This document shows positions 3 to 24,700 of a DNA stretch of 28,898 nucleotides, in pieces. This stretch comes from Elusimicrobiota bacterium. Lineage in GTDB: Bacteria > Elusimicrobiota > UBA8919. The first letter of the stretch is position 1; each line of letters starts with the position of its first letter. The notes beneath the pieces were generated by a model that saw only the letters and a list, made by a program, of their open reading frames with translations, ran no database searches and was not told where the DNA came from. Where the stretch lies: the NCBI GenBank assembly GCA_043816185.1, contig JBDRIG010000101.1, positions 1-28,898 on the forward strand. Direction: 5' to 3'. A program made the translations under genes and the position numbers.

Positions 3-710
3 TATTATTTAGCATTATCGATAGTAGCAAAAGAATATACTCCGAATTTGAAAAATAAATATCCAGAACTCGATAGTTTTTTTGAGTATATACGACTAAA
101 TTACAGTATAAATCCAATATATTTAATATTAGAAGAGAAAGCACTTACAAGAAACATTCTTAAGCGATATACTGGCAAGCAGTTAGATAACGAAGTACTG
201 TTTTTATCAGAGATGGGCGAGCATCTGAGAAATTTCTTAGATTTGAAAATTACATACGATGAGTTTAGTTATTTTAGTTCAAATGTTAGCACATTTAAGG
301 TATTACTAAAAAAATATTTTGAAGATGTTGAGGTGGATGATGTAATAAAGTTCGTAGAAAATGAAGAGATATGTTCGTTTTACAAAGTGAATATAGAAAG
401 AGACAATATATTTTATGAAACATTAAGTAAGGAAATAAGTAAGGGAGTTCAGAGTTCAGAGTCCGGAGTTCAGGGTAGTGGTGGTAAGATAACTTTATCT
501 AATGTGTCAAACCCTCAACTTAACGCAGGCGATTACACAGATGTAATAAATAGACTTAAAGAATTTAACGAGATAGAAATAATAGTTACAGGTGGATTTC
601 ATTTCAACCTAACAGAGATGTTGAATAAAAAAGGCATTTCTTATCTCACTATAATTCCTAATGCAACAAAAAAATTTGATGAATCTATTTACGAAAAAAT
701 TATAACTGGT
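3..710 (+). other. C-terminal part of a ChaN/EreA/TraB(Tiki)-like domain, of the type seen near the N-terminus of giant proteins
   Basis: FYKVNIERDNIF (378-413) followed by IIVTGGFH...L...GISYLTIIP (582-659) matches the R-D/N...(hydrophobic)-G-x-x-H ending of this superfamily. The N-terminal catalytic motifs lie outside the window. Confidence 0.5.
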
Positions 711-3700
711 AAAACGGATTTAATAGATTTTATAACATCAGCATTTGCAGCAATGTTGATAAGTGTGGATGTGAATTCTGAATCGCAGCGTGGTTTGATT
801 TTAAGCATAGCAGCATTCTATATGCTGAAGAAAGGCTACTCCAGCGATAAGATCAAAAATATCATAGATGAATGGCGGGAAGTCAACAAAATAGAAGAAG
901 AACTCGTTGTTAATAAGGAAAAACATAGTGTAAAAATTGGAGATGAAGTTTATAAATTTGAAATAAAAGATGGTAAAATAGTGAATATAGTATTAGAAGG
1001 TAAAAGTAAGAGGTTAGAAGAGAAAAAGGTTTCGTTGTCCAATCGTATAGGGGTTAGTGCCTTTATAATCTCAGTTTTTGGTGGGATTGCAACGCTTGTA
1101 TTAAGTAGTCCACTTGGTTGGTTTGTTGGCGGTATATTCGCAGCATTACAAATTGCACAGATTTATTTTATAACCGAAGTGAGTCGAGAAATAGGACAAG
1201 AAGTTGGTTTGATTAATGAATTTGGTGAACTTCCACCACAACAAAAAGTGCGTACTAATAAATTTGTGCCTGCAAAAACAATAGGTGGAGAAATACATAT
1301 TAATTCTGTATTGATGTCCCGCCTACCAGAATGGCTGCAAAGAGTGTATTGGAAACATGAAAATAGACATCTCCAATTTGCTAAAAGCAAATTTGCCCAA
1401 AAACGTCCATTAGCATATAAAATATTTTCCTACGAATTCCTGCCAGATTTATCTATTGAAGAAATTTGTGTCTCATTATTGGAAGTAATTTTTTTAATCA
1501 GAACTACTGATAGTAAATATTGGCCATTGGTTGCTGAAAAATTGGTTGCTGAAAAGTCTGTTGTCGAAAAACGAGCTGCCGAGAAATCGATTGTCAAAGA
1601 GCAAGTTGTCAGAGTATTAAAAACGCTTGGCACAGCACTACGTTCTCCTGTTTTACTTGGTTTGGTTTTGTTATGGGCAATCGCCGCTCAAACGGAATCT
1701 GTTTTGTTAGGTGCTGGTGTTTTTTCAGATAGCATTATTGGCGGCTTGGCTATCGGTATGACTTCATTGTCTGCGGGTAAAACTAAAATTTCAAAAAAGG
1801 AAGCGCAGAAAATTTTAGCAGAATTTGTTCCGAATGATGAAGGTTTTAAATGGCTAAGAAAACCCAATATTGATAAAGAAGAAACAGTATCTGTTACAAA
1901 TAGTAAACCTGGTTTATCGGGATTTTTGAATGAAATCAGTGAACTTTGTCTTAAGGGAGATGAGGGAATTTGGAGTTTACTTTACCATTCAGGACGCGGT
2001 GATATATTAAACTATTTAGTAGACTATTTAGATTTTCTCTCAAAAAAACACCCATATTTTAAAGAATTCAACGATGCTATCAACAATCTTAAAACTGCCG
2101 CAGCGGCGACTGACAACCTGCACGAAAAAGTTGTTTTAAATATAGAAGCAATTTTACTCGCAAATAATCTTGTTAACCGTCTCAACCCTACCGATAAGAG
2201 TGCTAAAGCGAAATTACCGCAATTAGGTGAAGTTAGAATACACAGTCCGCCCGAAAAATTAAGTTTTGGTTATAGAAAAGAGCAATTTAGAAAATTTTAC
2301 GAAAATAAGGATGATAAAGATTATGCAGCATCCGTGGCGGAAACTTTATTTTATTACGGAGGAGATAGCAATGTAATAGATGCTGCCTTACTCCACAAAT
2401 TATCCAAGGAAAAAATTGACGCTGCTTTTGAAGAAGTTGGATTGTCGAGCAAAGACAGAAAAGAAATTTTAGAACTCATCGCCATCTTAGATAGAACCAT
2501 TCAGATTCCATATGGACCTTCCAGAGGTGCTCCGTCAAACACAATTGAAAATCAAATGCTACTTATTTTCCAATCTGTGAAATCCTCGAATGGGTTTCTT
2601 TTAGTAGTGGCGGAGCGATTGTATGCACTTAAAACCGCAGAGAAGGATGATTGCGATGATATTGAAAGTTCTATCCAATTGCAGATTCGGCATATTTATG
2701 GTCCCATAGCAGAAATGCTTGATTTAAAAAATATTTCCAAAGAATTATGGAATCTTTCTTTAGAAAAATTAATTGGAAAAGAAATTTTAGATGAAATAGC
2801 AAAGAGAATTATAGGTGTTTACAATGATAAGGCAATTGAAGAGCAGGTAAGAGATTGGTTAAAAAATAATAACATTTCAAAAGCAGATATTTATGTCCGA
2901 TTAAAAGAACCTTCCAGTATAATAACTAAAATTACCAAAAAGAATATAGCTGAAATAGCAAATGAATTTATCATCAATGATCTTGTTAGTGTGACAATTG
3001 TTTTACCTAATACTGAGGAAGTAGGAAAAGTACGGAAATCAATAGAAGACGACGAAACCATAGGTATACCCGGCAAAAAATTTGTTGAAACTAAACCAAC
3101 AGTCTTGGATTTTACACAGTTTCATTATGAATGTAAAGGAATAGAAGTTAGATTAATGACCAAAGGAGATTATGATAAATATCTGCATGGAAATTATGCT
3201 CACTGGAAATATAAATTATCAAGGGATTTGAGTGCTACAAGACGATTCAAGAATCCTCAAGAGTTTGGTGGTTTTTTGATAGAACTGGGAAAAAACTTTA
3301 AAGAAAATTTTGATAAAGTATACGAATCTGTAAAAGATAAACCAGTTGTTATTAAATATTTAGAAGATGAAACGTTCTTTCCGATTATTGAATTGGAGCA
3401 ATCGCAAGAAGACCAAGGAGACGAATATGATGTTTTTAAACCTGCACAATTTGAAAGATTGAATGAAAAGATTAAAGAATTAAGAAAGAAACAAAAAGTA
3501 GATGTGGAAACTTATTATGATGCTAAAAATGGAAATAGTACGATGTCTATTGAGATTAGTATAAAAAATGATATTCCAGGCTATCTACTTAAAATCTTAA
3601 ACGTGATATTACCGGTAGAACATCTTTTGTCGTATCGTATGTTTATGTCAAAAACAAAAGGAACGGCTGAGATAAGAATTACTATTCCTCATGATATAAA

Positions 3701-6700
3701 AGATGAAGATAAGCGTGCTAAAATAATAAAAGAACTTGAGGAAATTACAGCAAGTAAAGAACAAACAATATATGCTAAAGAATTGATAAAAGAAACAATA
3801 AAAATAGAGGTTATTGCTGATAAGCTCGATAATGTTCGCAATATTTTAGAGGGAATTGCTGGTATAGACAAGCGAATTAATATCAATCATATTGAGGTTG
3901 GAGAATCCGAAAAGGTTGCAATCAATAGCTTCTGGTATATTATTAAAACTGCTGCCACTATTGCGAGAAATGCATTCGGAATTACTCCAGGAATTTCCAA
4001 GAGCGAGAAAATAAGTTTTACATTTGATTTAGGCCTACCAGAAGGAGTAGATTTTGAGACAATTAAAACATCGTTAGAAGAAATTGCTGTAATTTCTGAG
4101 GTTAAGAATTTATCTAAAAAAGAAGAACAAGTACAAAATCCTATTGTTGCAGGAATATTGCCACTCTTAGTAGTTTTCAAAGAATTTCAAAATATATCAG
4201 CAACACTTGCAGGGAAAATACGGCGTTTGTTTGAAGAAGCAACGAATGTTACATCTGAAAAATCATATTACAAAAATTATGCAGATATTTTAAAAGAAAT
4301 TGCTGGTTCTAATGGCATTTTCGTGATATCAGATGCCATAATAATAGAGACAAAGGAGAATCTCAAAGATATATACCCACTTATAACATTGGACGGAAAA
4401 GGAGTTTTAAAAATTGTTAATCTATTCGCAGATTTCATACATAATAATGGCCCACCGCAAAAGTTTGTTGAAATGTCTGATGGAAACGAAAAAGAAGCAC
4501 TTAGAAAATTATTTGGAGCAATACTAAATCATGAACAAATAGAATCGTTTGCCTTAGGTATCATTGATGGTGGTACTAAAAACAAAAGTTTATATGATGC
4601 CTATTCAAAATATCTGGAAGAAATCTCCGAAATTAAGGACAGAAACCACGTAACATTCCATAAATTTCTTGAATATCTTGTCAAATCAGAAAAAAACGAC
4701 GATCAAAACCTCGCAAAGTTAATTAATGCTTCCGACCAGATTATTCTTTTGGAATATGCTGCTGACTTCCTTTGTGAAAAATCAGTAGGTGATATTAGAT
4801 ACAGACTACCAAATGGACAAATTTTACAAATTGGTGCATTAAAAGGTTATGACAAAGTACATAAAAAATTAGGAGTAAAAGCAGCGGATGTTCTTGTAGT
4901 TCAAGATGAGCTCGTTTCATCGTCTAATGAAAATTTATTTCCAGTAATTATGAATATGATATTCGACTACGTGTTTGATATTTATGCTGGCCGCATGTTT
5001 GGGCCTGTATCAGAAACTGACAAACGACCCTGCTTTGTTGTGTTTAATGAAACAGGCGAATGGCCACAAGGAGGTCCACGACTAACACTCGTTGTAACAC
5101 AAAAACAAAAAGAAAAATTAGAAAAGATGATTGCTAATGCCTTTTTGGGACCTGAAAGTGAAAGACCGGAAAAAACATTTTTTAATGTTAACCATATTGT
5201 GAAATTTATTGTAGAAAAAGAAGGTGTTGCTGATTTAGGTAATGATGTAAAATTAAAAGTAGAAAGACAGGAAGATAAAAAAGTTATCTGCAACGTTGAG
5301 GTTAAAGGTGAAACTAAGAAAAAATTGGACTTCGAGAATGCTGTTAAATTTGATTTAGAACTTGGCATAAAACTTGAAAAACCAATAGTTCCACCTGCTT
5401 CAGGAATGGTTGCAGTAACTGTCGGTGCTGGCTCTTTTGGTTCAGAACTTGGAACTATTTTAAATACTTCTCTTCTTGTAATTATAAGAAACAAAGATGG
5501 TTCCTTGACAAGGATTGCTGTTGATCCGCATGGATACTTTGATAAAGTTTTAGAGGAAATGGGTTTATCAACAGATATTGATTATATTATAAATACCCAT
5601 ACACATCCTGATCATTTTGAAGGAACGCTAGAGCAGTCTGCGACCAAAGGTGCTAAACTTATAGCAGCAGGATCTGACCTCAATGGAAAGCGTGATGTAA
5701 AAGAATGTATAAATAATGAAATCGACATACTGTCAAAATTGACAAAACGTAGTATAAAAGATCATTTGCGATTTCTGGAAGGCAAAAAAAATACTGAAAC
5801 TGGGGTTTGGGATTACGAATTGCCTAATGGGACACATATAAAGTTTATGCACGTTGTGCATAGTATTCCTACAGCAGCAATAAGAATAGAGACACCAAAA
5901 GAATTAGGCGGCGGGACATTGATTCATGCACCCGATTTTAAGGAAGCAGAAAAAGATAAAAAATTAATGGAGTTTTTATTTGGTGATGGAGAAAATATTC
6001 CAGATTCAATTTTTATTGATGGAAAAGTAGGCGACCTTGTTCACCAGGACTTAGAAGTACTAATTAAAGAAATTTATTCAAAATATGGTGAAGAAGTTGC
6101 GAAGAAAATATTATCTAAGACGCGACTAATACATTATAGGAATGAAGAAGGACTAAAAAAATATGCAGAGAAAAACAATCTAACTTTGCCGAGTCCGCTA
6201 AAAATTGGTGAAGTTGTTGATGTAGGTGAGGTGGTTCATACTGGCGATGATACAGTTTCAATATTAAAAAGATCAGGTGGGGAAAAAGACGCAGAGCTTA
6301 AGGTAAAAACGAAAGAATTATCGGCATTAACCACAGATGAATTAGTGGATAATTTAAAAGAGAGTATGCCTCCATGTGACGAGACAACTGGTAATTGGGT
6401 TGAATTCAATGAAATAGTAAAGATACTAAAAGACAGAGGGGTACCCATAATGATTGTCGGTACACCTTCTGCAAGAGAAAAATTCGAAGACGCAAATGTG
6501 AATGTAGATGTAGATTATTATCTTCCTAAATACGCATATAAAAATTTTTATAGTTTTCACAATATTGTTTTAGAGATGCTAACTTCGTCAAACAAAATTT
6601 GGGTTGATTCCAAAGAGACAAAAGATTTTCTGCGTTATGCGTTAGAAAATGTTGTTCAGCATGTTGGTGGTGGTATTGTTGCGGTTATAGGGCAAGAACA

Positions 6701-9700
6701 AATTATTGAAAGTGGATATAAATATAAGAAGATTTCCGTTATTGATAATGGTAAAGGGTTTACTTACAAAGAGAGTGGCAAAGAAGTACCGATTAAAGAA
6801 GCAATTAGGCCTAGCACACATCCTGGTGGGCCAGATGGCAAAGGGCTTGGTCTTACCTGTGCGATGGTACCCAACTTAACTGTTGTTAAAACACAGCATG
6901 AAATGGCAATTATAACGCGAATTATGGGCGAAGATGGGTCTTTTTCAATGGTACCCACGGTAGTAAAAAATGTATATTTAGAGCGAAAACAAAAAGGTAC
7001 GGAAATTGTCGGATATTTTTCCAAGCTTGTTGATCTCAAGGAAGAAGAAGCAGCGAAAAAAGAATTATTTTTAGAACTTGAAAAAGAACTTGAAAAAATT
7101 GAATCTGTGGGTGGGGAAAAAGTTTTAGATTTACCAAAATCCGAAAAATCCGAAAAATCTGAAGACAAAAAAGGTAAAAAAATAACAGGTATAATACTTG
7201 CGGCATTAACCACAGTTGGTGCGACATTGATGTCGATGATGTCAGCTGGGACTGTGATGGCGGCGGATGTGGTTACTCGCGGTGCGCAGGTTATAGGGAT
7301 AGTTGAGAAAGGTGATTCGTTGTGGAGTATCGCAAAAGAACGTTTGATAGAGCAGGGCGGAAATCCGACAAATCATCAAATTTGGGATTTTGTTCAAAAC
7401 ATTATTTCACGGAACCCTCAAATTGCTAAGAATCCTAACTCGATTAATATTGGAGCTGAACTTGATTTAGACACAGTTCAACAAGCGGCACGACAAGTTG
7501 TTGAAGTGGGGCAAGATGTTTCAGGAGCGGCACAACGGGCTGTTGAAGTGGGGCAACAGATTCCAGGAGTAGGGCAACAAGCAGTAGAAACGGTTTTGCA
7601 GACTGTTGAACAGGTTTCGCAAACAATTCAAGAACCGTCGTTTGTTCAAAACATTATTTCAACAGTATATTCATATATCGACAGTATATCTTCGTCAATA
7701 CAATATCTTATTAACACAGGAGATATTTGGTATGTAGTGGGGACATTTGTAACAATAGTAGTAGCATTTTTTGGCTGGAAAGCATACAAAAAATATAAGC
7801 AACGCAGGACGGAAAGTCGGGAGATGGAAAAAAAGGTCGGGGGAGAAGTAAAAGAAGAAACTAAAGCGGAAATCAAAGAAAAAGTCGAAGAGAAAAAACA
7901 AGAGATTGAAGAGAAAAAGCAAGAAATTGAAGAGAAAGATAAAATCGAAGTATCTTCGCAAGAACCTCAGAAACAGTCAAAGAAGACCAATACGACTACT
8001 AAAATTATTATTGGTGCTATTATTGGTATTTCGATAGCAGTACTTTTATATTTTACTTTGCCTGAAATAGTTTCTGTTATAAAATCAGCAGTAAACACCA
8101 TTACATCATTTACACCATTCGTAAATGTATCGGTATCAGGTAGTGGTAGCATCTTGCTTGAGATAGGTAGCAATCTTGTCACCACACTATCAGGTTATAT
8201 GCCAACAGTGTTAAAACTTACAGGGTTCACAATAGTTGGCAGGTCAATGTACTATATTTATGATAGGAAACAGATAGAAAAACAATTTGGTTCCGATAAA
8301 GATGTTCCTAAGATAGGTACAGTTGGCGTGTTGTTAAAACTGTTTGGATTCGGGAAATTAGATAAAGATTTAGTTGTTAAACGCCTGGCAAAGCAGTCAG
8401 GTTGGAATGACGAAAAGATAAATGAAACAAAAGAAAATATAAAACGAATAGTGAAGAAAAAACAAAAAGAATCTTCAAGTATTAAAAATGAGAAAGTTCG
8501 AGACATTGCCCTGATTTTAGAGATAGACGAGAATCTCAAAAGATTTGGATTGAGATTTAATGAAGAAGAAATAAAGGTTTTAATAACAAACGCAGAAGAC
8601 GAAATCATTAACGCAAGATTAACCGAGGAGTTAAAAAAACAACACGGTAGATTAACAGAAGAAGAAATTAAAGAAATGACAGGCGGTGTCGAATTGAATC
8701 TATGGTCATGGTTGAAAGTTTTTATTGCTATGAAAAAGCAGCAACTTGACACGCGCGTTAAAATGCGTAAAGCAGCCCGTGAAAAAAGACATGAGGCAGT
8801 AAGAAGCGTTCAGTGGCTCTGGTATTTACTATACGATTTTGGTATTTATGCAATAGACAATGTTGTAGACTTTAAGTTATTTGAAAGAACAAATTTTTTA
8901 GGTAAAAATGCTTACAAAGAAGCATTAAAGTCAGCAATTAAAGGCGAGATAAAATCTCGGAGTAGATATTTTAGTTCCGTTAGGGATATCATTTATGTAT
9001 TAGGATCGACACTGTGGAATTCGTATTTGTTTATTGTGCCTAATGCGGGGATAACATTTATTCGTCAGAGATGGTCATTGGTTGTTCAATCTGAAATAGC
9101 AAGACGTGTTTTTGAGGCAGTAATTACAAAATCTGTTGGCGTAGGGGCTGCCGGTAAAATATTAGGATTTAGTTTTATAGGTAGTCCGTTAGGGATTGCT
9201 CTATTTGTTTCTATTTTTTCTGTGCTATACTTTATTCATACAAGACATGCAAAAGCAGAAATAGACGAGAGTGTAAAAAAAGGTGAAAAGATTACCCCTT
9301 ATATGAAGAAGTATTCAAGATATGTGGTTATGGCAATATTTTTGATTACTATTACACTGTTTTTCCTTCCTACAAATCTATTAGCAGATGTAGTGTCATC
9401 TCCGGTAGCGTCAGATGGAGTTAAGCAGTTTTTTACTATAATCAGTTTAGGTGGATGTTTATCGCTTGGGTTTTTAAGAACATTTTCGCGTTCCTATCGT
9501 GACCATAAATTAAACATAATGTCCAATAGTAGTGAATTTAATCCTACATTGTCTAAAACATATCAGGGAAAAGAAAAACAGGGAGAAGAAAAACAGGGAA
9601 AAGAAAAAAAACCAAAATTGGAGCAGTTATCGTTCAATAAGATACTTGAATTTTTAAACGAAGATAATAAGAAATCATTTTCACAAGAACAAAAGATAGA

Positions 9701-12700
9701 AGTAATTGTAAAACTAAAATTAGCATTGTTAAATAATTATATTAAATTAGATGATTCATATCTTATACCGCAATTAGCCAGAATCGCTATTGAGTCAAAA
9801 ATTGATGAATGGGAGAAATCATTACCCAAAGAATCAGAATTAAAAATATCTCAAATTTTTAAATCCGCGAGCAAAAAACAGAAATTTTCTGAGTTTTTAG
9901 TTGTTCTTTATGCTTTATTGAAAACACCATTCTTCCCGATAAAAGACCAAAAAGGACGAAATACTTGGTACGTTGAAAATTCGATAATATCAGGATGGCA
10001 CTTAGCGTTAGTTTCACCTGAAATTTCAGGAATTTTAGACGGTTCTGAATGGATTGACGAAGAAATTGGTTTACCTGTATTATACCCTGGCGTTAGTTTG
10101 ATTGATGGGCCAGATTCAAGCGTGATTTCTATTGGTGGTGAAATTATGAATAGTATCACGAGTCCGCTTGGGTTCACAATCGGCGATGCAATATTTCTTG
10201 GAGCAGGAATTGACGGTATTTCTGCCACTGGACTTGATGCACTTGTTATGGCACAACAAAATTTGAAAGAAGTGTCTGCTTATGGTGATAAATTAGATAA
10301 GATAATAAAAGACGTTGAAGACAACAAAAAAATAGATGTCAAAGGAAACAAGGAATTGTTTGATAAATTTATTAACGGAAATATAAGAAACTTACGCGGA
10401 CAAATAGAGCAAACGAAGGATAAAATTGAAAAAGAAAAAATTGAAGAAACAATAAAGCATTGGGAAAAAATAAAAGAAGATTTAGAAAAAAATAAAATAG
10501 ATAATTTAACAGTAATGGAATTGTTGATGGATGAATTTATAAAGATAAGGCAGTCTCGACAAATATGTTTAATAACCCTGTTGAGGGATTTAAAAATAAA
10601 AGATAAAGAACAGAGTGTAATTTTAGAAGACCCAGAAAAAATTAAAAAAATAGTCAGTCAAGCACAATCCGAGGGAAAAATAACTAAAGAGCAGGCAGAA
10701 GAAATAACATATAGTTTCTCTAAGGATCCGAAAATCATACAATCGTTATGTATCAAATTAAGTTTAGAGAAGGAGTTAGTCGAGACAAACAATCTAATTA
10801 AAATTAGTGATGGAATATTAAGCAAAATAGATAAGGATAAGAAATTAACAGAAGAAGATAAAAAATTGTTAATCAAAATAATTGATGGAGAAATAAAATT
10901 AAACGAACAAAACAAACAAAAAATAGAGCAAATGGAAAAACTCAAACTGATTTCAAAGGAGAAGCAACAAGGAATTATCGAGAGCACAAACAAAAAAATT
11001 ACTTATTTGAAATCACTATCCGAAAAAATAGTTGAAGGATTGACATTGGATGCTAATGATAAAAAAGAAATAAAAAATTGTATTGGTAATCTGAAAACGA
11101 GAAAAGAAGAGATTGAAAAACAACTGTTGTTTATTAAATCACAAAAAAAGAAACAAGTGGAGGAAGCAAGCCAAGTAGTTTCACCGCAGGCCTCACAACT
11201 GACTCCATCAGGGACGAAGAAAATAGTTCCATCAACGATTTTATCACCAGAGACGAAAGAAGTAGCTCCACCGGTTTTACCACCGGTTTTACCAGAGATA
11301 AAGGAAGTAGTTCCAACAATGGAGAAGGAAATAGTGGGTGAGAAAAAAGAAACTCAACCAGAAAAACCAAAAACTAAAAAACAAAAAGAAACAACTGCCA
11401 CTGCTGTTGGTGTAAAAGAAGGAAAAACAAAAATAGAATCAGTGTCATATGATAAAGAAGGTCGAAAGGTTGAAACCAGTATAGTAGGAACCGAATGCGA
11501 TGAAATAAGAAAAACAGCTATTAAAGTTCTTGGCAAAGGATATACAGTCAAAATAGATGCTGTTGATGATAAAGATGAAGAAGAGAAAAAAATTAAGTTG
11601 ACTATAAATTACGATGTTGGTGGTAAGGGTTATCTTATTCTTACTCCAGAAATAGAACTTAGGCAAAAACTAATTGAAGAAATGGTGACGGAGGAAATCA
11701 CAAAATATAATTTAGAAATGCGTGGTAAGTTGAAAAGTGTAAGTTATGAAATTCGATTTGAAGATGCAAAAAATAAGAACAAATTCTATGTTAATAAATT
11801 TATGCTTGATTTTTCTAATTTAGAAAAAAATAGAGTTTTAGCGTTGAATATATACGATCCGTTGGGTGAATTGGGCGATCCAAGAATATGGTTGGTGGGC
11901 AGTAAAACAGTGGTGAAAAAGGAAGGAGTTTCTTTAACTCCGCATATAGAGTTACAATACAAGGGCAATGAATTTATAAATGCTATCGTAGGATTTGCAA
12001 GTAAAATTAAACTTACAAAAAAAGATACAATTAAGTTAGATCTTAATTATTATGGTGATAAAAATGATGATAAAAGTGGTGTAGGTGGAACGGTAGCGTT
12101 GACGCACAAACTCATAGAAGGTAAAAAAATAAAAGTAAAGTTTAAGAAAGAGCACGAAGATAAAAAAATAATACCATCTATTGAACTTGAAACTAAAAAT
12201 AATGGACTTATAATAGCACTTACAAAAGGTGGAAAACTGGCTGTTAAATATTCAAAAAAATTTGCTGGTGGTTCCGCAATTGATATTTCTTGTGAAGCGG
12301 GACGGGTTGCTGCAAATTATTTTGCTCCCGAAGGTAAACATGGATTTACTTATTCGGCAAAGGATATAGGAGAGCCTGCAAAAGATGTTAGTGTAGGAGT
12401 ATTTAAAAACGCGTGGGGCGGTATTTTGAAAGTGTTTGGCTATACAGGAAAGGATAAAGAGTTTAAGGGAGCTGGTGCTGAGTATAATCGTGGAAATTGG
12501 AGCTGGGAAGTAATATACGACAAATTTGAAAAAGTAAAAGCAGCATTTAATTTCTCATATGGTTTTGGTCCCGGCGGTGATAAACCCAGTGATAAACCAA
12601 AATCTGGTTTTGGGCGGAGAGGGGAAACGGAAGCAACGAAAGAGACAACTGAAAAACAAAAGAAGGAGATAGAAAAAAAAGAAAAGCTACTACCAGAGAA

Positions 12701-15700
12701 AAAACTACAGATGGCGGTTTTCGATTCTGCTTCGGTTTCTGAAAACTCTCAACTCGTAGATGCTCATTCATTAGTGAAAACAAGAACCAATGCCTTGCTC
12801 AAAGCATTAGAAGAAGCAGAAAAAATTATTAAGGAAGGCAAGGCACTATCAGATAAAATTAAGAAAGAGATAGATATGGAACGGAAAAAATTGAGCGATG
12901 CAATAAATATAGTTAACGAATTATCGAAGTCAAGGGAAAAAGAATTTAAAGAGTTTCAAGAAAATTATAAACCGATTGAAGAAAAATGTAACGAGTTTCT
13001 TAGTAATTTGGGTTCTGAGATGAAGAATATAGAAAGTGCTATAACATTCACAAGACAATTACTTAACAAGGTTGACAGTGTTGTTGATGAATATACATTA
13101 AAGGTAGGTGCTAGTCAAATAATATTTAATTTATACAGTTCTTACGAGGAAAAAATAAAAAAGATAGATGAGACGAACAAAAAGGTTGGTGAATTTCTGG
13201 AAGGATTAGAAGCACATTTGAATAAGTGTGATGCTTGTTTGTCAATGATAATGAATTTCATAACCGATACTGAAATAAATAAAGTTTCGGATACTAAACT
13301 TAGTGATGAATTTGAAAGTGATACAAGATATCGGGATTATCTCAATGCTTTTGATAAGCTTGGCGAAAAAACCAAAAAAGAAGAAAAAAAGTTTTACCTT
13401 GCTTATAGCAAGGAAAAAAATGGGTTGGCAGGGACAATCGTTAAAAATCGCATGTTATTATGTAAAGATCTAAAACAATATCTTGGATTTAATAGTGTTG
13501 AAGAACTGCTTGAAAGCGAAGAAGGTCGCAAGGAACTTCTTTATTTTGCAAATATGGCCAGTTGGGAAAATTTAGGTTTGGATAAAGTAAAAGAAAAAAT
13601 ATCTCGTAGGATAGAGTTAAAACAATTAGTGGCTAACTTAATAGATATAGATGTTCGTAATTTTGATGTGCTTGAAAATGCCAATCACAAACTGCTCTTA
13701 GAATTTTATGCTAATCTGGTAGATTTTGAATATTGTGATTATGCTGATGTGAAAAAATTATTAGAAAATATGAATGAGTTTAAGTCGTTAGTTGGTAATT
13801 TAGTTGGACACGAATTGGTCTTAACTAACCCATATGGTAACGATACTAATCTACTACTTAGTTGGGCGATTAGACCACTATCAACATTAAAAATCTCATC
13901 GGAAGAAATAAAAGATAATATTAATTTTATGATTGGTATAAAACAATTAGTGAAAGAAATTGTAGGTCGTGATGATTTAGATTTAACGAATCCCTTTGGA
14001 AATGATTCAATCTTACTTGCATTTCAGGCGGCATTAGTGTTCCACGGTAAATATAGTGAATATTTCGTAAAGGAATTATTAAAAAATGCTGGAAAAAATC
14101 AGGAAGAAGTAAAGAAGTTTCTTGAAGCTACGGAGAAAGACTTTAAACTAGATGATGTATCTAACTATAAATTATTGCTCGGTAATTGGTTGAGAATCGA
14201 TGAATCAAAGTTAGACCAATCGAATAAAAATTACACAAAATTGTTAGGATATTTAATGGTAGCACGTAGCGTTTCTAATTTTACGGAATTTAATTTAAGC
14301 GATTACAGCGATCTAAGAACAGCGATTGAAAAATTAAATGGCGATAAAGAGTTAAAGTTTACGGACGATAAGGATTTTGATCTATTTATTTTCCTTGTCG
14401 AACTGACTATAGAATTAGGATGGCAACAAGAGAAGATGGTAGAATTAATAAACAAATTGAGTACAGTTCAGGGAACTGTAAATGGAATGGCTATAAAACA
14501 TTTCACTGAGGAAGAAATAGAAAATTTACTTGGCGATGCCAGCGGTTTAACTCAAGCAAATATCGAAGAAATACTTAGTAGAAAAACTGGTACCGAAATT
14601 AAACTGGATTTATCGAAGGACAGTGATAAATATGTTTTACTTTATTATGGTATGTTAGCGGGTATAATTTCAAGAAATCTACCTGCCGACGTTACCGACG
14701 CTGATAAAAAAAAATATATTAAGAATTTTTTCAATCAGATGGCTGAAATTTTACCATACCAAGAGTTAATTAATAGCAGGCCGATAGATATAACAAAACC
14801 ATCAGAAGCTAGAGACCTCAGTATAGAGGCCACTATATCATTAGAGTTAGAAGGTTATTTCGAAGGAAAACAGTGGGCAAATTATAAAGTCACAATACTT
14901 CTTAACGGCGTAAAAGTGATAGAAAAATTAGCAGAATTGTACGATGATAAATCAAAAGAAGATATAGCAAAGGATAAAGACATATGGAAAAATTGGGTAA
15001 TTTCTGCAACCGTAAAAGATAAAGATGGTAAAGCAATTGGTATAGGTAATACATTAAAGCACATTGATAATATGATAGAACTTAAGGGTTTGGTTCCTTT
15101 TGAATCGTTGGATTTCTTTGCTGGTTTAATAAGTTTCGGTGGATTTGATATAGCAAAGGTAAAAGAGTTGATTGCCAATATAAAAAGTGCAGAAGTGCCG
15201 ACTGAAAATTTCTTAAATGCACAAGGATTAAAAGGAATGCTAAATAACGAAGATCTTTCAAAACTTACGATAGAAAATTTTAAAAATTATTTTGGAGAAA
15301 AGGGAAATATAGACTTAGATATAAATAATCCACAAGACAGAGTTAAACTTATGTATTGGGCAGTTGTATTTGATGCAGTAAGCAAGCATATCAAGGGCAA
15401 GGGAATTAATTTGATAGATGCTTTAGCAGAACTTAAACCCTATATCCAATTAGTTATAGGTGACGAGACAGATATTACAAAAGTAGATTTAACAGATCCT
15501 GAAAATGCGTATTTTGATCTCTCATTCTTTAATGCTGTCCTATCTCTTTCAGGTAAATTAAGTCTTGAACAAGTAAAACAGATGTTAATCAATGCAGCGA
15601 GAGTAAAATCACTTGTAAAAGAAAGATATAAATTGCAGAAAGAAAATTTAACAGATGCTAAACTTGCAAATACACTATTTAAATGGTCAATGGTACCGAT

Positions 15701-18700
15701 ATTAACAGATGCTGAAAAGGAAATTATTAAAAAATTTACTTCGGAGCAAATAGAAGAACATCTAAAAACAGTAAACGAAATTGATAGGCAAGCAAAAAAA
15801 GAAAACATTAATATTGAGGAAATCAAGGGGACGGCGGCAATGGATTATTTAGCTATAAGCGTGTCGCAGGAAGCAATTAAAGGTGACAATATTCCCACTA
15901 TACTTAGAAGTATAAATGCTTCATTGGCGCAGAAAGAATTATTATTAAAATTATTTCCACCAACTCAAGGTTCGCCACAGGAAATCGATTTAAACAATTT
16001 AGAACACATTCATTTCTTAATTCCTTTCATAGACCAACTTAACCAAAAATTCTCTTCTCAACAAGTCCAAAATAATACCGAAAAAATATTAAAAATCGCT
16101 ATAGCTGTAGTTGAAGCAACAAATGGAGACGCCGACTTAAAAAGGGCACTTCTAAGAATACCAGTAAACCAACCCGTCCAACCCGTAAATTTATCTAACC
16201 CGCAACAAAGTGAAATAATTCTAAGTATCGCTAAGATGATGTTGTTTAGAAAAAAGTTGGGGGAAGGGGAAGATTTGTACGATATTAAGTCAGAAATGGA
16301 GATTGTAAAATCTTTAATTGAACTTTATAACAAATCTGGTTTAACGCTGGATTTAACAACACCGGAAGGTAAAGGTGTGTTAAGTTATTGGTTGGAACTA
16401 GACCTGACTGGAAAAGTTAAATGGAAAGATGAAAATGAGAAGGAGCAAACATTAGATATTGGTGTGGGTAAAGCAGGAGACCTACTTGAGAACATCGTAT
16501 TAATAAAAGCCAGCGCCGAGAAACTCCATGGACAAAAATTAGATCCAACAAACAAGAACGATTCAGGAATACTCTCATATTGGGGCCATATCAATATGAC
16601 TGGAAAGATAAACTACACCGACGAAGGTGGTAAACCACAAACATTAGATATTGGTGTGGGTAAAGCAGTAGAATTTTTATATCGCCTCAATAAAATTATT
16701 GAACCATTTAGACTAGAGTTTAACGAAAACAAGGAGTTTCTTAAAATAATTAATGGTGGAGAAAAATTTGAATGGCATAATAATTCATCAGCATATCTTT
16801 TTGGTTTAGTTGACTATGTTGGTTCTGAAACGGATTATAAGATACCTGAACAATATATTAAGACAGTGAAAACAGCACATAAATTATCTCAGAATCAGGG
16901 GATATTAGACATTTTCAATCTTTCTCATGATATCAAGTTTAGTAATCCGAAATATAGTAAAGAAGTGGGGCTTTTAATGGCGTTGTCTAAATACATTGGT
17001 GATAGTTTACTATCATTTAATTTTTATGATTATTTGGATAATACAGATGCCGCAGATGAACATATTACAAAGTATATTACCGATATAAGAGGGTCCCTTA
17101 CGGATACAGAAAGTAAAAAACTGAATAGCCAACTTAAAGCATTCTTAGAAAGTAATGGTCTTAAAGAACCGTATCAGAATGTTGAGTATTTTATTGTTGT
17201 TTCTGTTTTATCAAAATTTTTACGGCCATACATAGAAAAATATCGCGACAGACCATATATTCTTACGGATGATAAAGATAGATCTGAACTTGAATACTAT
17301 GCTAAAGGAATTGTCGAAGGTAAAGAAACGCTAAAAAGCGTAATTTGGACTCTTAAAGCGAAAACGGCTTTAAAGGAAATGATTGATAAAAAATTTTCAG
17401 CAGAGATAGCTACTTATGGTGAAGCATATGAATATGCATGGCAAAAATTCTTAGAAGATAAAAAAATAGAAAAGCCAGCACTCACAAAAAATAAAAAAGA
17501 AATGCTAAGATTAGAATTCGAAAATGAATTAAATAAGGATTGGATTATATCGTATTATGCAGAATCTTTCGCTAAGGAATACAAAAAGAGATTAGGGTTT
17601 GCAGAAGAAGGAGCCAAAAATAAAAAACTTACTGATGAAGAAAAAAATACATTATGGAACAATTTATTGGGAGAATTTGATGTACAGTTTAAAATTGGTA
17701 AAAACTTGGATATTAGTGTAAAAAAATTATCGGAATTATCGCAGAACGATAAAATACTTGCAGAAGCAATTGAAGCCAAAACAAGAATAAAGATTGATAA
17801 GTTTGAAATAACCAGATCCAACACTGGACAAATAATAGAAATAATCGGATTAAGAACTGAAATAAAAGACGGAAAAAAAATTGACTTGCGACAATGGAAA
17901 ATAGATTCGCTTGGGGTTCAAACTACAATAGAAATCTATAATTATAAGATTGACTCTAAACTCAAAGAAGAAAAATATGCTGCTAAAGGCGAAATTTACG
18001 AATTTGATCCCGTAACAAACAAAATTAGTGATAGGTTTCGCGGCGAACGGTACTATAGAATTGCTGAGTATAAAGGTGCATTAGAGTGGCACGATTACAG
18101 AGGAATGAACACTCTACCTAATGGGAATAAAGAAACATATACTCGGATAGATACTGATGATAGTTATACGAGAGTTTATTCTCGCGGCGAACGTAAAGAT
18201 CGTGAAGAAATCTACAAGTCACATCTTAAAGAAGAAGTACCGTTGCAGAAGATATTTTATGCTTCCGAGTTTGGTGTGCCAATAATAGAAATTTACACAG
18301 GTGCTAAGAAATTAACGAGTAAAATTTATGCATATAATCCCAATGCACTTCTTCGAAAAAGAGGCGAACATTTATATGATGTAATATATCAATACGATTC
18401 CAAATCCAGCAGATTTGTAGAAACGAAAACTAATGTAAAGAATGGAGTATATGAAAATGTAACAATTGCTGAACAACAAGGTGAACAACAAGATAAAATT
18501 GTTTATACAACCAAAGTGTTTACACCTAATCGTCAACTACTGTCTACAAAAGAAACCACATTAAAAAGAAACAGTCATACAATTACCGAATCAACTGAGT
18601 TTAGCAATGGCAAAAAAGAAGTGGTAGAAAGTGATACATGGACAGATAATAAAAAGTTGACCCAATATGATTCGCTTGGTAGAGAAGTTTTTACTGAGGA

Positions 18701-21700
18701 AAGTACGATTTCAAAAGATAATCCATACATAGAAAATACAGTACGAAAATATGCTGCTGGACAAATAGAAATTGGTAAAGCTGATACATATACAAAAGAA
18801 TCTTCCTTAATTAAATGGGCTGAAACAGATAAACATGGCAATCCTATTGGCGATCCAATAGAAGAAATTGCTTATGATAAAGTTAATATTGATTTTACTC
18901 AAGCATATTTAACATATACAAATAAAGATATTGCAAATAATACATTTTCCAATGGTAAAATAAACATACTAACAAGTGCTGAGGAGTTTACTATATACGA
19001 TGCTAAAAAAAATAAAATACTAAAAACCGTCAAAACAGCCATTGATTATTATACACTTAGACAAGGGGTAGAAACAAAAAACTATCAAGAAAAATGTATT
19101 GAAAAAGGATTTGTTAATCCATTGTATGGTGTCGGTAATTCTATAAAAACACTTGCTGATGGTAGAATAAAAGAGCAAACAACTTCATTGAATGAGAATA
19201 ATCAACCGTTAGAAGAGTTGATAAAAATCGAAGGCGAAAAAGATCGTCATCAATATTATCAACGTGTTGAACATTTGCTGGAGCACAAAGTATCTAAAAT
19301 TATTTTTGATTCTCCGTGTGGTGATAAAAAAGAAACTATAAAATATGCCATCAATCCTCGTAGAGAGTCTATGGATTGGATTGAAAAAATTCAACATAAT
19401 ATAAAAAATGAAGATGGTAAATATTATAACGAAACTACCTTCCACGATACCAGATTTGCTTCGAAAAGCGATGGCAGATTTGCTTCGGAAAGGTTACTTT
19501 ATAAAGATGGCCCGATGGTAGAAAGAGATGAGTGGGATGAAGGAGTAAATGTTTCGCATACCACAGTGGAAAAAGTTGGTAACGAAATGGTTACAACAGT
19601 AAAAATGCTTAAAGACAATGTTACAATCGAAATTTATAGGGATTCGAGGTATGGGTTTATAACGAAAATTAAAGCTAAAAACAGCATAATTGGGGAGGAA
19701 ACTTTAGTTTTAACATCAGAAGATGGTCAACATTTTGTCGGCGAAAATAAAGAAAACGGTCAAACTATTATAAAAGATTTATTGTTTGTCAACGGCCCTG
19801 AGATAAGTTGTATTATTAAAGAAAGAATGGGCGGGCTGTTAGAAATTGTTAGCAAAACAAGTACAATTACTAATCCTGATGATGGTACAATAGAACAAAT
19901 TATTGATAAACCAAAAGACAATGAAAGAACCACTATCAAACTTCTTTGGTTAGAAGGGCCAGGCTATGAAAAAAATACAATCAAAAATAGTATACATATT
20001 GCTCATTTAGAAAGCAACGATTTTGGTATGATATGGGAAGGGCATAATCCGTCTATGTCTATCAAAGATTCGAAAATTGTAGAAAAAGCAAGATATTATG
20101 GTGGAGCATTGGTTGAGGGTTATACTGAGATACTTGGCGATAGAGTAAGCGAATGGAAACGAACAGATAACGACGATGGCTCCACAACATTTATAACGAA
20201 TGATCCAGTAAAAGATATAGAGACAAAAATTAGATTTACGGCTGGGTGTAAGAATTCGTATCGCAAAACAATAACTGAAAAAGGAGTCATAGAAGCAGAT
20301 TTATCAAGTGAAAATTCAGGATTAACATGGTCTGGTAAAAATCCATATACAAAAGAAAAGATCTTTGAATCTGCGATTTATACTGGTGGTGGAAATGTAG
20401 AGGGATATAGAGAGATCAACGGTACAAGGACTTTCGAATGGCAGAAGGTTAATACCGATACAAAATCAACAGTTTATTCAAAAAATTTCAGAACATCGTT
20501 GAGTATGATACAAGATTTTCTTTATGACAGCGGACAGATGAAAAGCGAATCGGAAAAAGATTGGACTGGTAAAACTCGGTCCAGATTAGAATGCGATGGT
20601 TACGGTAGATATGAAATTAAACGCAATTTTGGTAAACTTAAAGGGTTGCAAAGTGAAGAGATGTATAGATATAACAAGATGCATTTGAAGCAAGTAGATA
20701 CAACCGATAAAACAGGTGAAGGTAAAAAAATACCAGTATCAGTATCAGCATTCTATGATAATGTTGGCAGAGTAGAAAATGGCGAGGAATTTTTTTATGA
20801 TCCGCAGACAGGAAAGTTAGAAGGAAAATACACATTTAACAACAAATTTGACGGTAGATTTTTGATTGAAAAATCTGGGAAAGACAACGCAGAAAATGAT
20901 GTATATAAAATACAATATAACAAATTTCAAGAACCCGAAGTATTACAATTTTTTAACAAAGGTGGCGGCTTGATAGAAAACAAGATTTTCGCATATACAC
21001 AGGGAATGGTTTTATCGGGGATTAGTACTTATGATGGGATAAGCGGAGCAAAAATTGCTGAAGATAGATGCAATAATCGCGGACAAATAACCGACAGTTA
21101 TATTATTTACTATGATAACACCACAAAAATAGAAATTGGTAGGGATAGAATTAAGCATTTTTACGATGGTTATTATAAAACTGGTTGGAGCGAGTTTGAT
21201 AACGAGAATAAAAATACTGCGAACGGAATTTGTGACCAGTTTGAGAGACCGAAAACCAAGACTGTTTTAGGATTTGAAGAAGAGGTAAAAGAGGAAGTTT
21301 GCTACAGCTACAATCAATATAATGGTATGATTGAATCAGTAACCGATGTGTTTGATAAAATAAGTCCTACTGGGAAAAAAACTAGGCAAAAAATTCGTCA
21401 AACGGAAAACAATGGCTTCGGTAAAGTGAAGATAGGAAGTATTTTTGAGTACAATGACGCCACAGGCGAGCAGGAAGGGAAAGTACTCAACAAATATGAG
21501 TACGATGGTTTTTTTACGAAATCTTCAAATGAAAAATATGTAGATAAATCGGGTAATAAATTTGATGTTTCAGAAACAACGTTTGATTCCAATAATAGAG
21601 AAGCAAACAAAAAACTTTTTGATCGCGATGGAAAAACAAAAATAAATTTCACCTATGAATACAATAATTTCAATAGCACAATAAAGGCAAGAACCAAGGG

Positions 21701-24700
21701 ACGAAACGCCCACGACAAACTTATTTTTGTGGGAGAACACAATTTCCGTGGTCAAGAAGTAAGAGCACAAGAATTGCATTATTTTAATAAATTAATATTT
21801 GACAGTCTTCCTCAAGACGAGAAAGAACTCTACGCCGCCTGTTTTGGTATGTCAGCCGAAGGAATGGGGCAGTTGGAAAATGGTAGCGGGTTTTCTCCAA
21901 AAATTGTTACAAAGGACTACAAGGGAAAATTTTTGAGAGCAGAAACACATTATAATACCGACGAAAAAAGTTTGGTAATGATGAAAATAGGATACGATCA
22001 ATATGAAAGACGAATAAATGTTCAAAAACCGTATCTTGAAGTAAAGGATGATAAGGTTGTTCCAGTCACCCGTGCTTATAGAGAAAGTTTCTACACAGCA
22101 GAACAACCTACATATAACAAATACAACAGTATGATTCCTTCTGAAATATTAAAAAATGTATGTCATGAGAGTGCAGATAAAAAGATAGGATTCACTAAAG
22201 AAGTGGCTAAATGTAATTCTCATGGTTCACCAGTGAACGAATATAAAATTGGTAATGATGGCAGAGAAGTTATATTTGCCAAAACTACTTATTTAGGTAT
22301 AAACAAAGAAAAAAGAATAGAATATGAAAATAGTAGAAATATTAAAACTTCTGATGACGGAAAGAAAAGTGTCTCGTATGATAATGATCCACTGGTACCA
22401 AATGTAATTTTGTCACGGGTATCAAATGTAATTTTGTATGATGCGCAAGAAAAAGACGATTCTTTCACAAAATTTGTATATGGTATAGCTGACGAAAATG
22501 GCAAGATTGTGATAGTGGATGGGTTAGGAACATCGGTAATGGATGAGGATGGGGGTGGAAAGTGGAAAGGACACACTGTTGTTAAGATTGGCGAACAAAA
22601 AGGAAAAAATTATTACAACAACGATGGTTCGTTAGCGTTTGTAATGATTGACTGTTTAGTTGACAAGACGAAAAAAGATATTATTTATTATGACAAAAAT
22701 AGACAAGTAACACATATTGTGAGAACACAAGTAGAAAAACAAGATATAGATAAATTGCCTACTCGTATTGGAACAGGAGATATACTTGTTGAAAACACAA
22801 ATGTTGATGGATTCAGGGTAGGACAAAAAGAGTATAATTTTGAAGATCTTAGGCTCCTTGGTTCCTACAACGAAGGTTGGTTTAGCCCATATGGTGATTT
22901 AATAGAGCTTAGGTTTAACAAAAACACCTTGAATGAAAAATCCGAAATACCACTTATTTTACAGAGATACATACAACATCATGATGGAACAAGCGAAATC
23001 TGGACGTACAATAAAAATGTGTTAGAAGAAATAACATACATTGACGAATTTGGTTGTATGAAAGGAAAAAAATATGTAAAAGAAGGAAGGAGTGAAGATG
23101 TTATTACTGCATATGGTTCGTATCCAGTGGCAACAGTATCTCGCAATGGAGAAATTTTAGAAGAAACAACTTTCAAAGCAATAGTAAGAAATAATAAAGT
23201 TCTCACAGAACCAGATACTGTAAAAAAAAGTGGCATCGTAAGAGGGGCTATTGCAGGAGCTGTTTATGGAGCAATTGTCGGTGCTGTAGGATGGTTTGTC
23301 ACTTGGTTGTTTAATATAAATCGTCTGCAAAAAGGAACAAAAACTTCTGCACTCTTTTCTCGCGGATTCTTTTCTACTTGCTTATCAGTTGCGGTAGGGG
23401 GTGGTTTAGTTTTTGCGGCTGGCTATTTAATACCTGCCAATATTTTCTGGTTACCAACTGGCAAATTGTGTGGTATATGTACTGCCGTAATAATATATTT
23501 ATTAGGTTCATTTGGAATCAAGCATTTTTTGCCAATTATGCCCGAAAAAATGAGAAGACACAATTATCTTCTCCATTGGGCATTACTTGCAGGTGCTGTG
23601 TTGGCATTCTTTGCCGTGCCTGGTTTATTACAAGATAGTATATCTAATGCCCCGTTATCGTTTATTGGTGACTTTTTCAAATATACTAGTGAATCTTTTT
23701 TTGATTTTGTACAACCGCTCATCGATTCCTTGTCCCAATTACAAACCAATGCTTCTCATCCTGTCGTTGGTAATAAAAGTACTTTTCCTTTATTTGCTGG
23801 ATTTACTATTTTCGTAGGAAAAACATTCCAACAAAAAAATAGACCATCAACGATATTGTCAAAAATCCCAGAAACTACAAAAGAGATTGACAATAACAAA
23901 TATATAATTCCAAAACTAAAAGAACATATTTTTTTGGGAACCAGCAAAAAAGCGTTTCCATTATTTCCTGTAATCTTAAAAAATTTATTAGGATTTTTGA
24001 AAATTCAGAGCTATATAACGCCACAGACTGACAAACTTGCGGCCTGTCTATACTTGCAACGTGAAACCAAAAAAATTACAAAAGAGCGAGAAAAAGCCAA
24101 CGAGGTAATATCTGAATTAGAAAAACAAATAATAGAATTAAACAACGAAACTGAAATATTAAAAAAGAATGTTGTGAATGATAAAGGCGAGACAGATGCC
24201 ACAAAATTAAACGATGCAGAGACAAAACTAAAAAAAATTGACAAGAAGCGTAAGGAAGCAAGAAAAGAGAAACTTAAAATACAAGATGAAGAAATCGTGG
24301 CTACGACAAAAAAGTTAGATGAATTGAAGGAAAAAAACAATTTGGAAGAGATTTTGGCCAATGTGCAGAAAAATTTAAAATACACGGAGAAAAAAATACG
24401 GAAATTGAAGGCTAAAGAAATGAAAATAAAAAAAAGTGACAAATATAAAGATCAAAACAGTGAAGTTAATAAAAACAGTAAATTTAATAAAAAAAAAGCA
24501 GAGGTGAAAGCGGTAAATGATAAGATAAAAGCCAGAGAAGAGAGTGGTGTCAAAATAAAAAAAGTAATAGAAAGGATTATTACGGATGAAAAATTTAATT
24601 TTATTACTTCAAAAAAGCGCGAATTAAACGGAAGATTAAAAATATTGCTAAGTAAAAATGTAAAAACTGACGCGAAAGAAACACTTAAAGGGCTTTTAGA

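Follow-up and report, generated by a model that had tools for sequence, protein, structure and literature searches.

Can a protein chain that is held by helices in the inner membrane carry, in its middle, a β-barrel of the outer membrane? This question is raised by a stretch of 28,898 nucleotides (nt) from an Elusimicrobiota bacterium (GCA_043816185.1, contig JBDRIG010000101.1; hereafter the window, which is the entire contig C101). In it, a single giant open reading frame (ORF) encodes a Gly-rich β-module of 392 residues, located in frame at nt 11391-12566, that is, amino acids (aa) 3797-4188. A previous reading made without database searches (the sequence-only reading) had taken this module for an outer-membrane-type barrel with its β-signal buried mid-protein. 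Our results show that the sequence facts on which it drew are correct, while the barrel interpretation itself is neither shown nor excluded. The explanation that we prefer, and to which we give about an even chance, is that the module is a soluble up-and-down β-domain carried between helical stalks. We prefer it because it fits the short strands, the tight turns, the Lys-rich faces and the lack of long loops, and because it needs no unprecedented biogenesis.

Without a stop over its 9,632 codons, the ORF is open at either end of the contig; a frame of such length is not attributable to chance in a sequence so rich in AT. It belongs to a genome of 1.44 Mb (34% GC, 112 contigs) in which 9 further ORFs reach at least 1,500 aa. 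With its single frame of many thousand codons, its numerous membrane helices (about 20 or more hydrophobic helices in all) and its divergent embedded domains, the encoded protein has the traits of a giant mosaic of the Omnitrophota type. By gene content the organism is a diderm. A BamA/Omp85 gene lies on contig C93 of the same genome (Omp85 domain, E 6.7e-62), and BamA was detected in 41 of the 41 related genomes searched.

The module falls into two parts, of about 145 and 245 aa. For the N-part, a low-confidence AlphaFold2 model shows four strands, and a helix that spans residues 90-109 of the segment. The C-part, on a strand map drawn by eye, contains some 14-19 strands of 7-12 residues joined by connections that are all 2-10 residues long, with tight, Gly-containing turns. 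The module terminates in the aromatic-ended strand KVKAAFNFSYGF, in frame at aa 4177-4188, just as the sequence-only reading had stated; the linkers that it had described on both sides are likewise present, Pro-rich upstream and Gly/Pro-rich downstream (compositions are given in the table). As to the coiled coils of that reading, the flanks at aa 3424-3737 and 4216-4480 show no more than a composition that favours helices (29-31% K+E, about 1% Pro). The claim that more than 5,400 aa follow the module holds too, since 5,444 aa follow it within the window, including hydrophobic helices at aa 7744-7874, 8705-8753 and 9271-9613. The 'many amphipathic strands' of that reading receive modest support. 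The hydrophobicity of the module alternates more than that of shuffled sequences (mean 1.97 versus 1.68 ± 0.14 in 500 shuffles) and strongly alternating 9-mers occupy 11.5% of its windows, against 5.5 ± 2.3% in shuffles, so that strand-type alternation exceeds the shuffles by about 2 to 2.6 standard deviations. The check that had been proposed, folding the segment and counting strands, was run twice with AlphaFold2 and yielded mostly strands but at very low confidence, with a mean predicted local distance difference test (pLDDT) score of 34.5 for aa 3797-4188 and 33.4 for aa 3940-4192. The models are unusable because no alignment could be built. An arrangement in tandem small domains was rejected: the best off-diagonal score of the self-comparison (50, versus 39.3 ± 6.5 in shuffles) was reached in 9 of 100 shuffles and is not significant.

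The module was compared with the outer-membrane proteins (OMPs) of the same genome. The Lys-richness of the strands, for which the sequence-only reading had called a soluble sheet a real possibility, is borne out: Lys makes up 15.1% of the C-part, about twice the highest value among nine OMP candidates of this genome, the barrel of BamA included (2.5-8.3%). Since ordinary exported-like proteins are themselves Lys-rich here (mean Lys 9.8%, n=117), this content fits a soluble exported protein, not an integral OMP. By eye, four or five strands carry K or H inside their hydrophobic face and many offer just three hydrophobic alternate residues, which also counts against a membrane barrel. The connections point the same way. 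Passages of PMC13067283 describe bacterial OMPs as alternating periplasmic turns of 2-5 residues with extracellular loops of typically 11-25 residues, and the strand map of the C-part contains no connection of 11-25 residues. The scarcity of alternating hydrophobic runs of at least 5 (only 2 in the 392 aa of the module) weighs little, because the BamA barrel has only 1 by the same crude measure. Two other measures were dropped as discriminators: coverage by alternating 8-mers, in which the module stands at about the 90th percentile of best windows and which is unspecific, and the density of alternating runs (2.04 per 100 aa in the module, 1.24-3.32 in OMPs), the same count being reached by 179 of 888 ORFs, obvious cytoplasmic enzymes included.

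As a soluble domain, the module would not be embedded in lipid but would form one or two small meander sheets, closed or open, of the lipocalin, fatty-acid-binding-protein or OspA type. The hydrophobic faces of its strands would pack inward and the Lys/Glu-rich faces would be turned toward water, and the aromatic last strand would be an ordinary core strand with no role as a signal for the β-barrel assembly machinery (BAM). The helical stalks would present the module as a 'head', probably at the periplasmic face of the inner membrane and less probably in the cytoplasm; in the former place its Lys-rich surface or its hydrophobic core may bind an envelope component or a ligand.

Several observations weigh against this soluble domain, and most of them speak for its main rival, a serious one that we hold possible but less likely: that BAM inserts the C-part into the outer membrane as an integral barrel of some 14-18 strands whose loops are short on both sides, as in VDAC or OEP24. 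With 11.8% Gly and 11.4% F+W+Y, the C-part is close to the OMP barrels that this genome encodes (10.9% Gly in the BamA barrel) and lies clearly above the proteome (6.2% Gly). Along the last strand, six hydrophobic residues (V, A, F, F, Y, F) alternate in what is the sole such run of 6 in the module. The Y-G-F end of this strand, placed before a flexible linker, resembles the C-termini of OMP candidates from the same genome (for example ...MSYKF, ...VGLNF and ...FEYTY). On the strand map, the connections of 7, 7, 6 and 10 residues are all found on one of the two alternating sides, and those on the other are limited to 2-5 residues, as is seen in OMPs. An Atlas search with the C-part, based on language-model features, returned Porin_3 (VDAC/Tom40) clusters as 22 of its 30 named neighbours and OEP24 as another 2, with scores of 0.91-0.93, so that 24 of 30 are organellar membrane barrels; the search itself rates the family assignment as probably wrong and its recognition value as low (1514), and we take these neighbours as a lead on the class of pattern, not on homology. 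In favour of the soluble domain, one of the three nearest clusters in a first Atlas search was named lipocalin-like (score 0.85), which is likewise a lead only. A composition classifier trained on this genome (cross-validated area under the curve 0.86) scores the module as exported-like (0.82-0.86, versus 0.61-0.65 for cytoplasmic control regions of both giant proteins described here), as either a periplasmic head or a barrel would require; it is poorly calibrated on giant proteins, giving 0.99 to a short, probably cytoplasmic K/E stretch. Finally, 4 of 8 own OMP candidates have no Pfam match, and because of this a missing family match says little.

The last strand deserves closer scrutiny. 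Passages of PMC13067283 and PMC8987393 give the β-signal as GXX-aromatic-X-aromatic in the last strand of BAM substrates. The final six residues of the module, N-F-S-Y-G-F, have aromatics at positions -3 and -1, and Asn instead of Gly at -6. A hydrophobic-x-aromatic-x-aromatic-x-[FW] pattern occurs 2 times in the 9,632 aa of the giant protein and 1.55 ± 1.4 times in 200 shuffles, which is the chance rate; what is notable about it is solely where it stands, namely closing a Gly-rich module to which a flexible linker is directly joined.

A barrel at this position would impose a particular layout on the chain. The module would reach the periplasm within a very long periplasmic loop, BamA would recognise the last strand (FNFSYGF), and an even number of strands would keep both flanks periplasmic. 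Like TonB and TolA, the chain would bridge the periplasm, here by means of its Pro-rich linker and its helical stretches, and unless cut it would be integral to both membranes. No protein with both inner-membrane helices and an outer-membrane barrel in a single chain is known to us, and the layout requires about 3,550 more periplasmic residues before the chain re-enters the inner membrane. That BAM tolerates barrels with more protein after them is illustrated by OmpA, according to passages of PMC8987393, and BamA is at hand in this genome and its relatives. Against the barrel stand the Lys content, the weakly hydrophobic or charged strand faces, the lack of long loops, the Gly missing from the signal, the chance frequency of the aromatic pattern, the lack of an adjacent export signal and the lack of any OMP family or PDB match (below). 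The full proposal, namely one polypeptide integral to both membranes through a mid-chain, BAM-inserted, short-loop barrel, with both flanks returning to inner-membrane helices by way of a TonB-like Pro-rich linker and helical spacers, and with the Gly-rich module of a second giant protein (see below) as an independent second case, is a tentative one, less likely than the soluble domain.

Searches for relatives show that this is a lineage-restricted β-rich module without detectable homologue. No match to it was found by phmmer among 1.84 billion representative proteins at E ≤ 0.001, nor by a word-indexed protein search in which 5,314 candidates were scored (0 at E ≤ 10). It was detected in none of 60 related genomes, among them a 78% complete genome of the same genus, and no paralogue of it occurs elsewhere in the genome or in the giant protein that contains it. 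Collections of genome and metagenome contigs gave 51 and 111 pattern matches, none of which was confirmed, and phage records and PHROGs gave no match. Among PDB sequences (phmmer, E ≤ 10) one chance match (E 0.88) and no OMP appeared. No OMP family matched the module in Pfam at E ≤ 10 or in NCBIfam at E ≤ 1; within the Pfam search at that threshold, neither Porin_3 (PF01459) nor OEP24 (PF28482) was matched. What these profile searches returned was sub-threshold noise only: BppU_IgG of Pfam at E 0.0046 (N-part, below the cut-off), SPP1_Dit at E 0.1 and L18 at E 0.018. Two small exported proteins (G000:C50:1109-1912 and G000:C53:28366-29088) end in WFDLYY and WFDLVY, contain 2.5-3.7% Lys and have no Pfam match; they probably represent an unannotated family of small outer-membrane barrels.

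The sole similarity to the flanks of the module was found in a 7,327-aa frame of another genome of the same phylum, G015, which fills its whole contig (G015:C38:2-21982, minus strand) and whose database copy (P0003) carries SecA_DEAD and SecA_PP_bind domains. Because of these two domains, the G015 protein is tied to the giant genes of bioRxiv 10.1101/2023.11.21.568195, where, in the passages concerned, West-Roberts et al. report a divergent SecA DEAD/preprotein-binding domain in most of the giant proteins found in Omnitrophota and their relatives. Residues 4521-4623 of the window protein match G015 aa 6029-6137 (E 1.2e-5), and its LysM-like loop aligns with a LysM-like stretch of the G015 giant (E 0.003). 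Moreover, the order of parts is the same in both: a LysM-like stretch, a Gly-rich β-module, a poly-Pro linker, a helical stretch and the shared helical repeats. These repeats, of about 90-100 aa with the motif (L/D)x(L/N)xNPxGxxxxxLLxxWA, occur at aa 6000-7300 of the G015 protein and have no family match. Helical, K/E-rich stretches of great length also occur in the G015 frame, whose β-module is preceded by a hydrophobic stretch of 30 residues (aa 5045-5074).

The G015 module (aa 5125-5575; Gly 11.5%, Lys 7.3%) has no significant similarity to that of the window (best E 0.15). It (P0002) gave no match in Pfam or PHROGs and no meaningful match in PDB; a search for longer proteins was empty, a region search returned solely the protein itself, and a metagenome scan produced 134 pattern matches, none confirmed. 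A search of 401 genomes from the phylum recovered, apart from G015 itself, a single match, in genome G240; this was judged spurious, since by eye it sits in a stretch like a PEP-utilising enzyme. The locus in G240 (G240:C97:18680-22012, minus strand) belongs to an 8,068-aa frame, a further giant mosaic protein of the phylum, in which a stretch resembles, by eye, the mobile domain of PEP-utilising enzymes. The arrangement around the module thus recurs in G015 but leaves the fold unrevealed.

The membrane topology, read from Kyte-Doolittle hydropathy and flanking charges, is ambiguous. Upstream, sub-threshold matches to HD_4 and RelA_SpoT and to a β-lactamase fold on aa 600-2393 suggest that this region is cytoplasmic. 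The last clear helix before the module, aa 3108-3126, is flanked by 5 K/R within the 15 aa before it and by 1 after it, an asymmetry that suggests an inside-to-outside course. Directly upstream of the module there is no signal-peptide-like stretch, the nearest hydrophobic helix being about 640 aa away. Downstream, the cluster at aa 7744-7874 has two loops with 4 K/R each that would be cytoplasmic, which puts the preceding region outside; both this and the orientation of the upstream helix are what a barrel would need. The hairpin at aa 8705-8753 has positive residues at both outer ends, suggesting that its flanks are inside, and the two patterns are reconcilable solely by assuming an extra weak helix near aa 7925-7941. 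Altogether we give the module about two chances in three of lying outside the cytoplasm.

The second rival, which we hold to be unlikely, places the module and its 4,600-aa surroundings in the cytoplasm, as a soluble domain of a cytoplasmic scaffold; it differs from the preferred soluble domain in location alone and is counted within the even chance given to it. The module would be cytoplasmic if the borderline stretch at aa 3143-3161 crosses the membrane: together with the positive tail SRSYRDHK, that stretch would form a helical hairpin with aa 3108-3126, which would also deprive a barrel of access to the periplasm. The hairpin at aa 8705-8753 agrees with this location. The same is true of composition, since aa 4189-5900 (K 11.9%, E 9.8%) equal aa 600-2393 (K 11.0%, E 9.9%), while the LysM-like loop has K 1.9%; but Lys hardly separates exported from cytoplasmic proteins in this genome (9.8% versus 11.2%). 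Against it stand the charge pattern at aa 7744-7874 and the classifier, which scores both the module and aa 5900-7743 above the cytoplasmic controls. The last rival, an amphipathic sheet that would act at a membrane without being a resident BAM substrate, either as an AsmA/TamB-like lipid groove or by insertion into a foreign cell's membrane (should these bacteria with small genomes live attached to hosts or prey, as has been proposed for Omnitrophota that have giant genes), is improbable. In its favour are the amphipathic, Lys-rich pattern, the membrane-barrel neighbours in the Atlas and the location in a giant envelope protein, of a kind that passages of bioRxiv 10.1101/2023.11.21.568195 discuss in connection with predatory or episymbiotic bacteria; against it is the lack of any AsmA, TamB or pore-forming-toxin family among the Pfam matches to the module at E ≤ 10.

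Table. Features of the giant frame, in the order of the window (residues are those of the giant protein)
Feature	Residues (aa)	Nucleotides	Strand	Remarks
Giant multi-pass membrane protein		3..28898	+	single ORF, 9,632 aa, both ends open
Hydrophobic helix	3108-3126	9324..9380	+	Kyte-Doolittle 2.21; last clear membrane helix before the module
Borderline hydrophobic stretch	3143-3161	9429..9485	+	Kyte-Doolittle 1.54, followed by SRSYRDHK
Upstream K/E-rich, helix-favouring stretch	3424-3737	10272..11213	+	K+E 30.9%, Pro 1.3%; from composition alone
Pro-rich linker	3738-3796	11214..11390	+	Pro 16.9%, K+E 37%
N-part of module	3797-3943	11391..11831	+	mixed strands, one predicted helix
C-part of module	3944-4188	11832..12566	+	meander of short amphipathic strands
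Last strand, KVKAAFNFSYGF	4177-4188	12531..12566	+	ends Y-G-F
Gly/Pro/Lys-rich linker	4189-4215	12567..12647	+	Gly 22%, Pro 11%
Downstream K/E-rich, helix-favouring stretch	4216-4480	12648..13442	+	K+E 29.4%, Pro 0.8%; from composition alone
Helical repeat modules	~4500-5900	13500..17702 (approximate)	+	common to the G015 giant protein
Four-helix hydrophobic cluster	7744-7874	23232..23624	+	ends a 4,600-aa stretch without clear membrane helices

Other parts of the giant protein were also inspected. An HExxH-type motif, HENRH, lies by eye between two pairs of hydrophobic helices (nt 1356-1370, aa 452-456). The HD_4 and RelA_SpoT matches (nt 2322-3218, aa 774-1072; E 9e-5 and 1.1e-5) and the metallo-β-lactamase-fold match (Lactamase_B; nt 5571-5951, aa 1857-1983; E 2.5e-3) are all below the Pfam cut-offs; they mark putative divergent (p)ppGpp-type and hydrolase domains embedded in the protein. 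A signal-peptide-like stretch (nt 7143-7259, aa 2381-2419) consists of KKGKK, a hydrophobic core at aa 2394-2412 and a VMA/AD junction, with 7 K/R before the helix, and could be a signal peptidase cleavage site within the giant chain. It leads into the LysM-like loop (nt 7239-7718, aa 2413-2572; Pfam LysM E 0.012 at aa ~2430-2490, below the cut-off), whose composition is atypical (K 1.9%, Q 12.5%, versus K 10-17% elsewhere in the protein). Two assignments were abandoned: YD/RHS repeats read by eye at aa 5900-7743, for which PF05593 and PF25023 have no match in the window, and a glucosyltransferase-like domain between helix clusters (nt 26262-27812, aa 8754-9270), with no match to PF13632 in the window and none in NCBIfam. 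The motifs of the latter stretch, which are reminiscent of OpgH-type glucosyltransferases, are not confirmed by these profiles, and neither assignment entered the reading of topology. Elsewhere in the genome, contig C106 (5,692 bp, one open frame of 1,679 aa) is at its start 80% identical in nucleotides to bases 1-300 of the window, and the proteins share 46% identity over about 250-295 aa; the C106 frame is a giant paralogue, and the two contigs are broken at a shared repeat.

If the module is a barrel, its chain would be the first known to us that is anchored in one membrane by helices and in the other by a barrel. BAM would in that case have to handle a substrate fixed on its two sides, and the finding would matter for the picture of how small-genome bacteria arrange their giant proteins within the envelope. 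If it is a soluble head, it adds to the unannotated modules of giant mosaic proteins and would serve mainly as a warning that strand alternation and an aromatic end do not identify an outer-membrane barrel. On either reading, giant genes hold domains that are beyond present homology and single-sequence structure tools.

Known systems offer partial parallels. Fimbrial ushers have a barrel followed by other domains. So does E. coli OmpA: according to passages of PMC8987393, its N-terminal barrel of 8 strands carries the β-signal GVSYRF, and a periplasmic domain comes after it. The statement of the sequence-only reading that internal barrels are known mainly from inverse autotransporters was therefore too narrow. 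Like the module, OmpA-type proteins and ushers have a strand-rich domain that ends in aromatic-x-aromatic, then a flexible Pro-containing linker and more protein; unlike the giant chain, they start with a signal peptide that is cleaved off and lack helices in the inner membrane, whereas the module has no family match, 15% Lys and more than 5,400 aa with membrane helices after it. Inverse autotransporters (intimin/invasin) are similar in that the barrel, here a putative one, is not C-terminal and that a LysM-like stretch stands in the same chain, but here that stretch lies about 1,300 aa upstream with several hydrophobic helices in between. Their families are absent from the Pfam matches of the giant protein, whose order of parts is not that of signal, LysM, 12-strand barrel and passenger.

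Among proteins that bridge the envelope, TonB has a Pro-rich spacer, TolA has a long helix, and VirB10 crosses the outer membrane with helices, not with a barrel. VirB10, of type IV secretion systems, spans both membranes according to passages of PMC4182333. All three resemble the layout considered here in that one chain anchored in the inner membrane reaches the outer membrane, but none has a β-meander module or returns to the inner membrane, and TonB and TolA are not inserted in the outer membrane. VDAC/Tom40 (Porin_3) and chloroplast OEP24 are, like the putative barrel, Lys-rich with short strands and short turns on both sides, but they are eukaryotic organellar proteins and their likeness to the module is in language-model features alone. 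For the preferred soluble domain, the parallels are lipocalins, fatty-acid-binding proteins and Borrelia OspA, which combine short strands, tight turns and an alternating pattern with Lys-rich surfaces; the likeness is one of pattern only, as no family of this kind matches the module in Pfam.

The protein as a whole compares with the giants of the Omnitrophota type, the G015 protein included. For these, passages of bioRxiv 10.1101/2023.11.21.568195 describe soluble barrels of the carbohydrate-binding type and no outer-membrane barrels. The two giants studied here differ in that G015 has a SecA domain, whereas the part of the gene in the window has no SecA DEAD or preprotein-binding domain in 24 overlapping 600-aa tiles at E ≤ 0.05, the gene being cut at both ends so that such a domain may lie outside the window. 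All these giants have in common a single frame that runs to thousands of codons and encodes many membrane helices, enzyme domains of high divergence and long stretches without annotation.

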